Assembly: GCA_963807965.1 (NCBI GenBank)
Contig: CAWEDU010000009.1
Location: 35,577 to 99,576 of the forward strand
Source: an uncultured Thermoplasmatales archaeon
GTDB taxonomy: Archaea; Thermoplasmatota; Penumbrarchaeia; Penumbrarchaeales; Penumbrarchaeaceae
DNA length: 64,000 nucleotides
Direction: 5' to 3'
Shown: one piece after another, positions 60,558-63,915 of the stretch
Position numbering within the stretch: the first letter of the stretch is position 1
Layout of the letters: the number at the start of each line of letters is the position of its first letter
Position numbers and translations under genes: made by a program
The notes under the pieces: model-generated
Databases searched by the model: none
What the model saw: only the letters and a program-made list of their open reading frames with translations
What the model was told of the DNA's origin: nothing

Positions 60558-61433
60558 GTGAGGATGAAGCTTGAGGTAAGGGAACTCACCGATACGAAAT
60601 GCTCGTTCGTTGTGGATCAGGTAAGACCCGATGTGGTAAACACAATCAGGAGGAGCCTCGTATCCGAGGTTCCAAAAATGGCAATAGATGAAGTGGAGTT
60701 CCATATGGGCCCCATCAGAGATGAAGAGGGAAATGAGTATGATTCCAATTCTGCTCTCTTTGATGAGATGATAGCCCATAGGCTTAGCATGGTACCCATT
60801 CCTACCGATCTTGAGAATTATACCTTCAGGGACCAATGTGAATGCGGCGGTTCCGGCTGCCCTCATTGTACCATTATCTATGTAATGAACAAGAAGGGAC
60901 CTTGCACAGTTTACTCTGGAGACCTTCAACCTCTTGGTGATATGAGCCTGAGGATCAAGGAGGAACTCATCCCTATAGTCAAACTCAAAGAGAAACAGGC
61001 CCTGCTCATATATGCAACTGCTGTGATGGGTAAGGGAAAGACCCATGCAAAATGGCAGCCAGTTACGATCTGTGGGTATATGAACTATCCAAAGCTAGTG
61101 GTCAATAATGATGTCAAGATCGATGATCCCGAGGCTGTCATCAAGGTTTTCCCCGAAGGGGTCCTTGTGATCGAAAAGGGGAAGATCGTTGTTAAGGACC
61201 TTAAGCCCCTTGAAGATAAGGACCCGTCCTATTACGAATCCCCCATTCTGGATGCTCTCGACGGATCTGAGAAGAAGATCATCGAGATCTCTCATGAAGA
61301 TAATAAATTCGTGTTCAACTTCGAGACCGATGGTTCAATCACCTCCAAGGATGCACTTAGTCATGCACTGAACTATCTCTCTGATTTCTACGAAGAACTA
61401 AGAGAGGAGATCTCAGGACTTGATGAAGCTTAA
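60558..61433 (+). CDS. rpoD: DNA-directed RNA polymerase subunit D (Rpo3)
   Basis: 291-aa ORF, follows S11 as in other archaea. Dimerisation domain with a Cys cluster CECGGSGCPHC. Confidence 0.8.
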   Translation: MRMKLEVRELTDTKCSFVVDQVRPDVVNTIRRSLVSEVPKMAIDEVEFHMGPIRDEEGNEYDSNSALFDEMIAHRLSMVPIPTDLENYTFRDQCECGGSGCPHCTIIYVMNKKGPCTVYSGDLQPLGDMSLRIKEELIPIVKLKEKQALLIYATAVMGKGKTHAKWQPVTICGYMNYPKLVVNNDVKIDDPEAVIKVFPEGVLVIEKGKIVVKDLKPLEDKDPSYYESPILDALDGSEKKIIEISHEDNKFVFNFETDGSITSKDALSHALNYLSDFYEELREEISGLDEA

Positions 61434-61492
61434 ATATTCAATGGACTCTCTGCAGACCGAGGTATCTTACCTTCGGTTCATATTCATACGCT

Positions 61493-61548
61493 CTGAACCC
61501 CGACAGCCTCAAGTCGTGACCACTAAAACATTGCGAGGGGAGCTCAGA
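61493..61548 (+). repeat. Partial direct duplication of the tRNA-Leu upstream leader plus the first ~15 nt of the tRNA 5' end. The second copy lies at 61681-61735.
   Basis: gaaccccgacagcctcaagtcgtgaccactaaaacattgcgaggggagctcag matches gaacccgacagcctcaagtcgtgaccaccataacattgcgagggtagctcag with 4 differences. The ~135 nt between the copies contain palindromes ccgggaacaagttcccgg and ttgaccatgggtcaa. Confidence 0.7.
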
Positions 61549-61718
61549 ACCCTTTGACCATGGGTCAAAGCGTTCACGGAAAGGGCACCTTCGGTAGCCC
61601 AACTTGGTCATATCCGGGAACAAGTTCCCGGGCCGTTGACCAATCTGTGGCGGTCACTTCACGATCACACGCATCCGCCCCGAACCCGACAGCCTCAAGT
61701 CGTGACCACCATAACATT

Positions 61719-61805
61719 GCGAGGGTAGCTCAGCTTGGTCAACGGCGCTAGATTGAGGGTCTAGTCCTTAGTGGTTCCTGTGTTCAAATCACAGCCCTCG
61801 CACCA
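61719..61805 (+). tRNA. Candidate tRNA-Leu (anticodon GAG), class II with a long variable arm and encoded CCA.
   Basis: Hand fold: acceptor GCGAGGG/CCCTCGC, 3-bp D-stem with a large D-loop, anticodon stem CTAGA/TCTAG with loop TTGAGGG (U33, GAG, R37), 13-nt variable arm, T-arm CTGTG-TTCAAAT-CACAG, discriminator A, then CCA. Confidence 0.6.
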
Positions 61806-62310
61806 TTTTCTTCTCGTTAATATTAAATTGATACAGAAAATGGTGCTCTAAAACGCTGACACTCGATGAAAAATGATGATAGGCGATACAACCGTTTTTC
61901 ATCTTAACCTTAGAACTTAGATTGACGTCATATTTACTACAGTTCTAAGGTCACAGCCCTCGCACTATAATTTCAAAGATTTTACGTGTAATATTAAATT
62001 GATACGAAAAAATGGTGCTCTAAAACGTTGACACTCGATGAAAAATGATGAGTACGGAGATTACAGACCGTTTTTCATCTTAACCTTAGAACTTAGATTG
62101 ACGTCATATCCAATACAGTTCTAAGGTCACAGCCCTCGCACCATTTTCTTCTCGTTAATACTTAAATTGATACAGAAAAATGGTGCTCTAAAACGCTGAC
62201 ACTCGATGAAAAATGATGATAGGAGATACAGACCGTTTTTCATCTTAACCTTAGAACTTAGATTAACGTCATATTTACTACAGTTCTAAGGTCACAGCCC
62301 TCTTCTATGA
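61806..62310 (+). repeat. Array of three tandem ~165-175-bp modules immediately 3' of the tRNA-Leu. Each has a TATA-like box, two conserved inverted repeats (hairpins) with hypervariable loops, a tRNA-3'-end-like terminus (…GGTCACAGCCCTCGCACCA) and a T-rich tract.
   Basis: Units at ~61806-61967, 61968-62143 and 62144-62310 are >90% identical outside two variable patches. IR1 is gatgaaaaa…tttttcatc. IR2 is ccttagaact…agttctaagg. A degenerate fourth 3'-end copy (acagccctc) lies near 62343. Confidence 0.75.
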
Positions 62311-62367
62311 TTGAAATTATTCGAGCTGATTATTCACTGGACTACAGCCCTCTAATCATCTTTGTTT

Positions 62368-63915
62368 TCAAGATAGAGGATCTCTTGTATACTTACCATC
62401 CACGATCCTCATGATCTTGGCAGGATTCTCATCCTTCAGATCATCTGGCAGATATCTTTGGTCAAAATTCTGGAAGGCTACCGGTCTAAGCCATCTTTTT
62501 ATGGACATCATACCAACAGATGTTGTCCACGGAGCTGTTGTGGCAGGGAAAGGACCTCCATGTTGCATGGCATGGCCCACTTCAACTCCAATGGGGATCC
62601 CATTCATTATGACCCTCCCAACCTTTTCAGAAAGGACCTGAACAACAGAAGAAAGATCATCATCTTCTTTCCCTGTGATCACAGTACCTGTCAATTGACC
62701 TTCAAATGTCGTAATGGTCCTGAGAAGGTCCTCTCTATCGGTACATTTAACGATCAATGTGACAGGACCGAACCTTTCCTCATGAAGTAGAGGTTCTCTT
62801 CGAAATAATGCTGAAGATGATACCATCATCGTATTATCGAATACTATGGATGTTTGACCACTATCATAACTTCCTCTTTGGATCTCCAATCCTTCCACAT
62901 CCATTAAAGCAGAGAGTCCATCCTCCAAATTATTAAGGACCCGATCACTTAGTAGAGGTTGGCATTTGCAAACGATCATTCTCTCTCTAAGGGATCCAAT
63001 GAAATCATCCAAATTCGATGGTCCTTCCAATAATATCAGTCCGGGTTTTGTACAGAGCTGACCTGATCCGTGGAGGACCGCTCCTGAGATCCTCATTGCG
63101 ACGGAAATGGGATCTTCCCTTAATGCGTTCTCAGTTACAATAACTGGATTAATACTTCCCATCTCACCATAAAAAGGAATCGGTTCATTCCTGGATTGGG
63201 CTGCATTATGGAGTGATATGCCTCCTTTTCTACTACCAGTGAAAGCAGCAGCTTTGATCAAAGGGTGGCATACGATCTTCGATCCAACTTCTTCTCCCGT
63301 TCCTTGGACAAGTGAAAATGTTCCTGCTGGCAGGCCGTTCTCTTCAATTGCACTTTCCAGAGTCGATCCCAGAAGCTCGTTGGTCTCTGGATGGGAGGGA
63401 TGACCTTTGGCCAGGACAGTGCACCCTGCAGCAAGTGCGGATACGGTATCTCCACCACATACTCCGAATGCAAGCGGAAAATTGGATGCTCCAAATACAG
63501 CGACCGGACCCACGGGGATCAGGATCCTTCTGATATCTGGTTTAGGTGAAGGGAACCTATTTACGTCTCCCAGATCGATGATGGCTTCCTGATATGAACC
63601 CTTCTCTATCAGTTCGGCAAAGGATCGGAATTGATCGCTTGTCCTTTTTAACTCTCCTCTCAACCTTTTAGATCCTATCGCTGTTTCCCTGTCTGTGATC
63701 TTAATAAGGTCTTCTCTAATGTGTAACAGTTTATCCCCCAAGCACCTCAAGAAAGAAGCTCTCTCGTGCCTTGGGACGTTCTTGAAAAATTGAAAAGCTC
63801 TCTCTGATTCCTCTATTATGTTATCAATATCTTCTGTTGGAGTGTCAGTGAATTCCTTTTCGGCAGGTTTTCCTGTTCTTGGATCTATTCCTCTAAAAGT
63901 TACTGTCAATATCAT
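62368..63915 (-). CDS. Aldehyde dehydrogenase family protein (alpha-ketoglutaric-semialdehyde/2,5-dioxovalerate dehydrogenase-like, NADP-dependent type).
   Basis: 515-aa ORF with ALDH features …FTGSRKGG…, catalytic Cys context …GQLCTKPG… and C-terminal …GGPFPATT…. Confidence 0.7.
   Translation of the reverse strand: MILTVTFRGIDPRTGKPAEKEFTDTPTEDIDNIIEESERAFQFFKNVPRHERASFLRCLGDKLLHIREDLIKITDRETAIGSKRLRGELKRTSDQFRSFAELIEKGSYQEAIIDLGDVNRFPSPKPDIRRILIPVGPVAVFGASNFPLAFGVCGGDTVSALAAGCTVLAKGHPSHPETNELLGSTLESAIEENGLPAGTFSLVQGTGEEVGSKIVCHPLIKAAAFTGSRKGGISLHNAAQSRNEPIPFYGEMGSINPVIVTENALREDPISVAMRISGAVLHGSGQLCTKPGLILLEGPSNLDDFIGSLRERMIVCKCQPLLSDRVLNNLEDGLSALMDVEGLEIQRGSYDSGQTSIVFDNTMMVSSSALFRREPLLHEERFGPVTLIVKCTDREDLLRTITTFEGQLTGTVITGKEDDDLSSVVQVLSEKVGRVIMNGIPIGVEVGHAMQHGGPFPATTAPWTTSVGMMSIKRWLRPVAFQNFDQRYLPDDLKDENPAKIMRIVDGKYTRDPLS

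Follow-up and report, generated by a model that had tools for sequence, protein, structure and literature searches.

What kind of element is the tandem array that directly follows a tRNA-Leu(GAG) gene in an uncultured Thermoplasmatales archaeon? The array lies in a stretch of 64,000 nucleotides (nt) of contig CAWEDU010000009.1 (assembly GCA_963807965.1, positions 35,577 to 99,576), which is called the window throughout and in which all positions are counted from its first letter. A preliminary description of this DNA had noted promoter-bearing repeats with two hairpins, each ending in the 3' terminus of the tRNA itself, and had offered as readings a multicopy structured RNA family, a miniature integrative element using the tRNA 3' end as attachment (att) site, or elements resembling short interspersed nuclear elements (SINEs) or miniature inverted-repeat transposable elements (MITEs). 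Our analysis finds a module with three compensated helices that is conserved behind the same tRNA gene in related archaea. Tentatively, with a probability of roughly 0.4, we favor the reading that these modules are small-RNA genes of the tRNA-trailer-repeat kind, as tyrT-RtT of Escherichia coli, and that unequal recombination through the common tRNA end has amplified them.

The array and its modules

The tRNA-Leu(GAG) gene, with its CCA encoded, occupies 61719-61805 on the plus strand (ARAGORN; Rfam tRNA, 44.4 bits at a gathering score of 29). The direct repeats described behind it are recovered by Tandem Repeats Finder (TRF) as a single array at 61789-62302 with a period of 176, 3.1 copies, 87% matches and a score of 827. 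The array begins within the tRNA gene: the repeat opens with the final 17 nt of the tRNA (61789-61805, TCACAGCCCTCGCACCA). A module of ~170 bp comprises a hairpin P, a linker of ~18 nt starting with an invariant A, two further hairpins H1 and H2, and the tail, in which the final 17 nt of tRNA-Leu recur unpaired and which in most copies is followed by a short T-run. The parts of the array, with boxes resembling the TATA box and the transcription factor B recognition element (BRE), are:

61800-61846 (+): hairpin P of unit 1; 5' arm GCACCATTTTCT (last 6 nt of the tRNA plus trailer) and 3' arm AGAAAATGGTGC (61835-61846), a 12/12 inverted repeat
P loop of unit 1, 23 nt (+): BRE/TATA-like CGTTAATATTAAATT at 61815-61829
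61850-61967 (+): predicted RNA body of unit 1; invariant A at 61850 (predicted start), linker, H1, H2 and tail
61952-61967 (+): tail of unit 1, CACAGCCCTCGCACTA, with one substitution
61968-62018 (+): degenerate junction of units 1 and 2; 5' arm of P lost (TATAATTTCAAAG...)
61989-62001 and 62007-62018 (+): parts retained in this junction, TATA-like GTAATATTAAATT and 3' arm AAAAAATGGTGC
62022-62147 (+): body of unit 2, the sole complete copy; linker, H1, H2, exact tRNA tail (62127-62143) and TTTT (62144-62147)
62138-62186 (+): hairpin P between units 2 and 3, GCACCATTTTCT/AGAAAAATGGTGC with loop CGTTAATACTTAAATT; 95% identical to the junction of the tRNA and unit 1
62190-62302 (+): body of unit 3; H1, H2 and a tail ending after CACAGCCCTC
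within 62303-62372 (+): insert after unit 3, ~40 nt (TTCTATGATTGAAATTATTCGAGCTGATTATTCACTGGACT) between direct repeats ACAGCCCTC
62344-62372 (+): decayed copy of the ancestral end of the array, ACAGCCCTCTAATCATCTTTGTTTTC (...CATCTTTGTTTTC), with the fourth copy of a direct repeat at 62344-62362

H1 corresponds to the first inverted repeat of the preliminary description, GATGAAAAA/TTTTTCATC (61865-73/61895-903, 62037-45/62071-79 and 62205-13/62236-44), and H2 to the second, ACCTTAGAACT/AGTTCTAAGGT, which extends to (A)CCTTAGAACT/AGTTCTAAGG(T) (61907-17/61941-51, 62083-93/62117-27 and 62248-58/62282-92). Both stems are, as had been claimed, 100% identical among the three units of the window. The claim that each unit closes with the tRNA end followed by TTTTCTT holds for unit 2 (62128-62149) but not for the other two, since unit 1 ends in GCACTA plus TAATTTC (61952-61973), with unrelated sequence past GCACTA, and unit 3 is truncated at CACAGCCCTC (62293-62302). 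Nor are the differences between units confined to the hairpin loops: the 5' arm of the junction hairpin is lost in unit 2 (33% identity to the other copies), and the tails differ as well.

The copies differ mutually and independent assemblies of relatives show one to three diverged copies, which makes an assembly artefact unlikely as the source of the array. Copy numbers are given as assembled, and assemblies alone, without reads, give no exact count. At L135:7230-7265 (loci of relatives are designated by L and a number) a 23-nt internal duplication (TTCCTTAGTGGTTCCTGTGTTCAAAT) is seen within the tRNA-Leu gene of a metagenome contig, next to rearranged units; it is probably a repeat-induced misassembly, and array copy numbers in assemblies are to that extent not secure.

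Three helices with compensatory changes

Are the hairpins maintained by selection, as the preliminary description proposed? A MAFFT alignment (A2) of 17 distinct units from about 10 lineages, with three helices defined on unit 1 of the window, has standard pairs in 93.7% of its cells, compared with 41-52% once the 3' partners are displaced by 1-3 columns. Both-sided changes occur at 15 of 32 pairs, and the covariation score of 0.390 compares with 0.152 +/- 0.014 for shuffles, none of 500 shuffles being as high. RNAalifold returns from the alignment alone the P, H1 and H2 helices and no others, and a scan of the alignment for extra antiparallel covarying helices or pseudoknots found none. Such compensatory changes across about 10 lineages support the proposed selection on the stems. 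H2 occurs in at least seven sequence versions, each of them complementary, and H1 in six versions around an invariant A4/U4 core (A4-5/U4-5), the only stem positions that never vary. The fold of P, H1 and H2 together has a z of -5.9; the predicted transcript of unit 2 folds at -28.1 kcal/mol with z = -2.74.

Hairpin P, which the preliminary description did not recognize as a helix, has as its 5' arm the U-rich trailer of the preceding tRNA or unit together with the 6 nt that end this tRNA or unit (GCACCATTTTCT). This arm pairs with AGAAAAUGGUGC at the start of the unit (AGAAAATGGTGC in the window), and the variable half of this helix covaries (TTTTCT/AGAAAA, TTTTTC/GAAAAA, TTTCTC/GAGAAA, TTTCCC/GGGAAA and TCTCTC/GAGAGA). 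The preliminary description had instead paired the 5' GGUGC of a transcript with its own 3' GCACC to give an acceptor-like stem. Such a stem can be drawn on paper, but in 10 of 14 units the arm AGAAAATGGTGC is 12/12 complementary to the trailer ahead of it, whether that of the tRNA or of another unit, and against the 3' end of its own unit it mismatches precisely at the covarying positions; the acceptor-like stem is therefore not the selected pairing. A duplex between linker and tail is negligible in units of the window type (type D), at 0 to -5.7 kcal/mol.

Conservation at a single locus and change in copy number

RpoD homologues that are 100% to less than 50% identical were found in Thermoplasmatota metagenome-assembled genomes, and the DNA around 12 of them was retrieved; an RpoD-based scan of metagenome contigs gave 9 loci. 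Wherever RpoD is at least 66% identical and the flank is readable, every relative carries tRNA-Leu(GAG) after rpoD and then at least one homologous unit. No tRNA follows rpoD at L145 and L146, where RpoD is 64% identical. In the following loci RpoD is 66-95% identical to that of the window, and the unit counts are:

L001: 2
L003: 1
L124 / L133: 2 and a truncated third
L125: 1 and a truncated one
L126, L138: 1 and a partial one
L130: 1
L131: 2
L140: 1
L142 / L143: 1

A comparison of the tRNA-Leu locus, suggested earlier as a way to recognize the array as an insertion, thus finds the module already in place behind the same tRNA in relatives, usually as a single copy. A single unit behind the tRNA is therefore the conserved state, and the window holds a local three-fold amplification. 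Assemblies with identical RpoD (P0010) have differing unit numbers and chimeric units, so that the array evidently changes fast, as would be expected of unequal recombination.

A covariance model (R1) finds units at this locus in the window and in relatives, and matches nothing else in 193 kb of related DNA, the whole 64-kb window included. The idea of a structured family tied to the 3' end of tRNA-Leu is upheld. The alternative of SINE- or MITE-like elements is not supported, with one syntenic locus and no dispersed copies in the 193 kb.

After the last unit most lineages share a common flank, CCATCTTTG(T/G), and L001, L003, L124 and L126 end in ...CACCATCTTTG(T/G). This flank looks like the original flank of the tRNA gene, and 62344-62372 is a remnant of it in the window. 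The genes beyond the array vary and include an aldehyde dehydrogenase, an nSTAND/TPR ATPase, a glucodextranase-like gene, a ribbon-helix-helix (RHH) gene with an open reading frame (ORF) of PIN-like start, and membrane proteins; the array therefore sits at a synteny break.

Promoter-like elements, loops and tail

Could each module be transcribed on its own? The TATA/BRE-like element reported for each unit is present in the window as an AT-rich, TATA-like stretch ahead of each unit and recurs as conserved boxes in relatives, in an apparent promoter role. The P loop holds a CGTC(R)AT consensus followed by an AT-rich octamer (for example TTTTAAAT, TTATATAA, TTTCATAT and TATTAAAT). Along A2, C16, G17 and T18 are nearly invariant, A21 and T22 are invariant, and T48 and A51 are invariant at a fixed distance. 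The invariant A (alignment position 51; window 61850, 62022 and 62190) lies four bases past the 3' arm of P. Counted from where the AT-rich box begins, it is about 30 nt away, which is the spacing expected from an archaeal TATA box to the start site. The boxes in the P loop are similar to TTAAATA at the rpoD stop and to further TATA-like boxes upstream in the window. Taken together, these TATA-like boxes argue for putative independent transcription starts of the units.

The loops had been regarded as hypervariable and guide-like. Between the window units W1 and W3, however, the H1 loop is 86% and the H2 loop 96% identical. Across lineages, the H1 and H2 loops are 50-67% identical, and within the window nearly identical. 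Part of the loop sequence is conserved, namely CGTC(R)AT and a terminal AC, the H2 loop of 23 nt having a weaker copy of the former and sharing the latter with the P loop. Moreover, 12-mers of array and loops have complementary matches in the rest of the window at the frequency of shuffled sequence, that is, at chance.

The H1 loop starts with UGAUGA in the window, L001 and L003, which had suggested a K-loop, but elsewhere with UGAUCA, UGAUUC, UGGAUU, CUGAAC or CGAAUU (L124, L126, L131, L140, L143). The reading as a K-loop or C box fails because UGAUGA varies and there is no D box. The tail segment CACAGCCCTC is the most conserved part of the module, with a mean identity of 0.92.

A second module type and signs of recombination

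At L143:4173-5000, and also at L142, a 'type c' module is present in two or three copies. Its layout is that of the window units, with a hairpin abutting CCA, two hairpins and a 22-nt tail derived from the tRNA, and its sequence is unrelated. The type c linker GGGGGUUUGAUUUGA pairs with the 22-nt tail (fold z = -7.07), and this predicted pairing suggests that the tail may be used at the RNA level, at least in the type c module.

In L143, one c copy is directly followed by its terminal hairpin, as at an empty site, whereas the other is followed by a D-type unit and a second tail, as at a filled site; the two differ by exactly one unit plus one tail. Furthermore, three independent truncations fall right after CACAGCCCT(C), namely in unit 3 of the window, L131a and L131b. 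These signs at the tail fit site-specific insertion and homologous exchange between 17-nt repeats equally well. The proposal of an att-site element keeps a degree of support: direct repeats of the tRNA 3' part lie around the insert, empty and filled sites exist, and the flank and the breakpoints are shared. On the other side, neither a recombinase nor a viral or plasmid att site was found in the ORFs, partial genomes and sequence collections covered.

Searches for further copies, families and mobility genes

R1 gave nothing significant in unrelated loci of bacteria and viruses (767 kb), where scan decoys served as negative control. A strict pattern scan of metagenome contigs matched no unit. 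A loose one of genome contigs (AAAAATGATGA..ACCGTTTTT) gave at least 120 loci, and among the matches listed only L028, on the contig of L003, is real. Similarity to phage and plasmid records was not found by blastn. In viral contigs, the tail pattern had 2 chance matches inside GC-rich phage coding sequence, and the P-loop pattern returned 48 loci, 0 of which matched R1. Rfam found only tRNA in the window and the related loci; these results rest on the 'evalue' mode, as the 'gathering' mode on long inputs missed even the 44-bit tRNA-Leu. Pfam gave no integrase, transposase or Cas1 for ten ORFs of the window, and none is listed in the Pfam annotation of genes called in related loci, which covers part of each genome. 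Literature searches yielded no archaeal precedent for the module.

Several known classes were considered and set aside. A box C/D or K-loop RNA lacks a conserved D box CUGA in addition to the replaced UGAUGA, and the Rfam C/D matches are far below gathering. The single syntenic locus without dispersed copies speaks against MITEs and SINEs, as do inverted arms that pair across unit junctions and not unit ends. For a casposon-derived element, the unit ends beside the CGCA...-type duplication are by inspection not inverted repeats, and no Cas1-like ORF was seen. Integron attC arrays do not fit stems that are perfect without bulges; the R''/R' motifs (RYYYAAC / GTTRRRY) are absent by inspection and no integrase was found. 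As to a tRNA or tRNA-like RNA, ARAGORN and Rfam call the true tRNA only, the linker-tail duplex is weak and the 5' arm pairs upstream. H/ACA RNA, type III antitoxin repeats and clustered regularly interspaced short palindromic repeats (CRISPR) were dropped on inspection. The motif TAATATTAC in the P loop of L003, which could belong to a replication origin or a rolling-circle nick hairpin, is not conserved, and 23 bp is too short for an invertible promoter. Ends of IS200/IS605 elements or a TnpB guide RNA were rejected with no such gene seen and hairpin loops that are too long, and short peptides with reading frames (ATGGTGCT...) that are not conserved.

Which explanation fits best?

If the modules are indeed small-RNA genes, each would be transcribed from the invariant A to give an RNA of about 120-125 nt, consisting of two hairpins and a single-stranded 3' tail identical to the tRNA. 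This RNA would end at CCA and an oligo-U signal, the same as the tRNA end; its structure would act in the RNA itself, which might then serve some role in the cell. Hairpin P would fold the read-through trailer back onto the CCA end and so separate neighboring units. Unequal homologous recombination through the segment of tail and trailer could gain or lose units, and an intact tRNA would always be regenerated because the left boundary of the repeat lies inside the tRNA gene. Several observations weigh against this explanation. In L140 the tail is decayed (TTACTGCCCACGCACTA) while all three hairpins are intact, and the tail would therefore be dispensable. Several lineages have only T3 after CCA, hence weak terminators. 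The predicted RNA starts downstream of the 3' arm of P, so that covariation in P needs read-through transcripts or a role at the DNA level. For neither the tail nor the loops was a target or partner found by window complementarity, covariation or linker-tail checks. Finally, G.U cells are as rare in the helices as A.C cells (about 11 versus 10, many of them alignment slips; after manual correction one to three events for either strand). As there is no excess of G.U, the stems carry no signature of the RNA strand, would be equally at home in single-stranded DNA, and are fitted equally well by DNA hairpins.

The module might instead have no promoter of its own and be a long structured 3' trailer of the tRNA-Leu transcript, started from TTAAATA at the rpoD stop, in which P, H1 and H2 would act in cis in 3'-end formation, termination or insulation against convergent genes and any module RNA would be a processing by-product, as RtT is in E. 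coli. We regard this as possible but rather unlikely. P holds the CCA end of the tRNA and covaries with its trailer, which is simplest if both arms are in one RNA; only T3 follows the tRNA in L124, L126 and L131, making read-through into P likely; and a hairpin stands directly after every tail of tRNA type, including the unrelated type c modules. Through the invariant A4/U4 of H1 each strand has a run of T4-6, an oligo-T signal that could plausibly terminate transcription in both directions between convergent genes, and the RtT units of E. coli are annotated inside the tyrT operon. Yet the P loop keeps its TATA-like AT-richness and, at constant spacing to the invariant A, the BRE-like CGTC(R)AT, for which an RNA loop has no obvious need, and the outer base pairs of H1 covary, so that H1 is needed beyond its T-run. 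Archaeal termination is not known to need hairpins, which we also count against a cis-acting trailer.

If the stems instead act in single-stranded DNA, the units could be miniature non-autonomous integrative modules that use TCACAGCCCTCGCACCA at the tRNA 3' end as att core and depend on a recombinase encoded elsewhere, an explanation we consider unlikely. Direct repeats of the tRNA 3' end bounding each unit are the classical footprint of integration into tRNA genes (PMC9897764). The exact difference of one unit plus tail in L143, the flank CCATCTTTG after the last tail in most lineages, as for an old attB flank, the three breakpoints immediately past CACAGCCCT(C), the tail common to different module types and the switch of gene content right after the array all agree with it, as do stems that are purely Watson-Crick without G.U bias and a tail that is the most conserved segment. 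On the other hand, ten ORFs of the window and the Pfam annotations of genes called in related loci hold no integrase, transposase or Cas1; no copy lies off-locus in 193 kb, and relevant matches to viral contigs, phages or plasmids are lacking. A unit of 170 bp is also far smaller than any known integrative element. The one syntenic site is kept across RpoD identities of 66-100%, chimeric units point to homologous and not site-specific recombination, and the empty site is also explained by precise loss between 17-nt repeats. A bolder combination, which we hold to be distinctly improbable, makes the 3' end of tRNA-Leu the anchor of an unrecognized archaeal platform, in which promoter-carrying hairpin mini-cassettes of at least two unrelated types (D and c) are exchanged at a core of 17-22 nt and their RNAs expose the acceptor 3' strand ending in ACCA. 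If this were true, functions of the tail in trans are conceivable: it might serve RNase P as a natural external guide sequence, for example, or be a decoy for factors reading the 3' end of tRNA-Leu.

Is selection needed at all? A non-functional tandem duplication of the tRNA trailer could keep its inverted repeats perfect by template-switch (quasi-palindrome) correction, and the near-perfect Watson-Crick stems, in which pairs flip (A-T to T-A, for example) and no wobble intermediate is seen, the identical stems in the tandem copies of the window and the decay of tails in older or terminal copies are in line with this. Still, the module is kept in place in every readable lineage, whereas at an RpoD identity of 66% intergenic DNA free of constraint would be expected to be scrambled. 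Invariance extends to unpaired positions (T48 and A51, CGT and AT of the P loop, CG(T) and AC of the H2 loop), and a single copy is the commonest state, so that the array is not merely a recent duplication; this account is very improbable. Hardly credible at all are the RNA readings first put forward, a K-loop or C/D-like guide RNA with hypervariable loops and an acceptor stem, or a tRNA-derived SINE or MITE. UGAUGA does open the H1 loop in the window, L001 and L003, and there are weak sub-threshold C/D matches (sR35, 15.3 bits at a gathering score of 60). Against them stand the variability of UGAUGA without a D box, a 5'/3' stem that is not a covarying pairing, loop complementarity at chance in the window, and the lack of dispersed copies and of further helices or pseudoknots.

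Neighboring genes and the upstream U element

Upstream of the array lie core chromosomal genes, an operon for the ribosomal proteins S13, S4 and S11 and RNA polymerase subunit D (rpoD, 60558-61433), and then tRNA-Leu(GAG). Between rpoD and the tRNA gene a further structured element, U, is found, which is not part of the array:

61533-61684 (+), in the context 61499-61733: U element, between two ~49-nt repeats (94% identity), each made up of the leader and nt 1-15 of the tRNA

GCGAGGG, the 5' end of the tRNA, is also the start of U, and at 61632-61647 the element holds tRNA nt 13-28 in antisense orientation. Several of its hairpins have compensatory changes in L001, L003, L124, L140 and L143. 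The element is absent in L125, L126, L130, L131 and L138 and has no Rfam match. The TTAAATA over the rpoD stop (window 61425-61440) is also present in L124, L126, L131 and L138, and lies ~30 nt before the tRNA where the U element is absent. This box is probably the promoter of tRNA-Leu, and the transcript of the window would then carry a leader, U, a second leader and the tRNA.

On the other side of the array, the decayed array end overlaps the stop codon of a convergently oriented gene for an aldehyde dehydrogenase (62368-63915, minus strand; Pfam Aldedh), and the segment 62303-62372 resembles an insertion or deletion scar at the tRNA-derived core. In L124:3180-3330, L125:3760-3900, L133 and L135, a truncated unit that consists of the P loop, the 3' arm, the linker and one half of H1 stands just upstream of the RHH gene. 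The ORF after this gene starts with MNVLIDTST and is PIN-like by eye, so the two may be a toxin-antitoxin pair; they share a TATA-like box of their own and a palindrome, TGTGATTGAAAACAATCACA, that resembles an operator.

Known systems and significance

Does a comparable system exist elsewhere? The preliminary description knew of no described archaeal element of this architecture, and for archaea this stands, but beyond the archaea the tyrT/tyrV-RtT array of E. coli (RF00391; small RNA RttR, peptide gene tpr) has the same layout and likewise lies directly 3' of a tRNA gene. With the same tools, tyrV of E. coli K-12 gives 178 bp x 3.1 and the window 176 bp x 3.1. Tandem units of ~170-180 bp directly 3' of a tRNA, each with its terminal 17-19 nt and the trailer, as in tRNA-trailer repeats, are thus found in the window; the E. 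coli unit holds the last 19 nt of tRNA-Tyr (AATCCTTCCCCCACCACCA) plus the same trailer and the window unit 17 nt, in both cases from the interior of the T-loop to CCA. One unit of E. coli K-12 is annotated as RttR, and one E. coli unit gives a ~171-nt RNA, described as of unknown function (PMC3318445, citing Bosl & Kersten 1991). There is no homology in sequence or structure: RF00391 has no match at E<=10 in window 61300-62500, whereas the positive control L197 from E. coli has 4 matches at 133-138 bits. In contrast to RtT, the archaeal units have apparent BRE/TATA-like boxes of their own and a junction hairpin that includes the CCA end, and the archaeal module is usually single-copy and conserved with compensatory changes across a deep clade. 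The same layout from unrelated sequence in archaea points to a recurrent solution and not to an oddity of E. coli.

The partial tRNAs at attL and attR of archaeal integrative elements, which may also accrete in tandem, are similar in their direct repeats of the tRNA 3' end, the regenerated tRNA and the variable genes that follow, and known archaeal elements of this kind have 9-23 kb, repeats of 40-50 bp and an integrase (PMC9897764). The segments in the window differ in having about 150 bp and a repeat of 17-22 nt, no integrase having been found, and in being structured and apparently vertically inherited. Tandem casposons of Methanosarcina also target the 3'-distal part of a tRNA-Leu gene, with a 14-bp duplication that starts with CGCA and ends AT-rich (PMC4779613), which CGCACCATTTTCTT of the window fits superficially. 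Unlike casposons, the units lack terminal inverted repeats with those boundaries, Cas1 and PolB, and are about 50 times smaller. The 3' halves of split tRNAs (Nanoarchaeum, Caldivirga) are separately promoted short genes ending in a tRNA 3' part, and the window unit likewise would be a short gene with an apparent promoter of its own and a tRNA 3' end. It differs in containing only 17 nt of tRNA, without the anticodon side, next to an intact tRNA-Leu, and no bulge-helix-bulge is seen by eye. Nor is there a conserved 5'-half partner, the U element being absent in five lineages.

What does the module mean for the biology of these archaea? Repeats of a tRNA 3' end behind tyrT of E. coli have been known for decades, and the archaeal counterpart adds three hairpins backed by covariation, what appear to be promoters of its own, and deep conservation at a single locus. 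With an alignment, a covariance model and about 10 lineages, a new structured element is defined that can be searched for in metatranscriptomes. The module is a concrete case for how tRNA genes may seed adjacent RNA genes or recombination hot spots.

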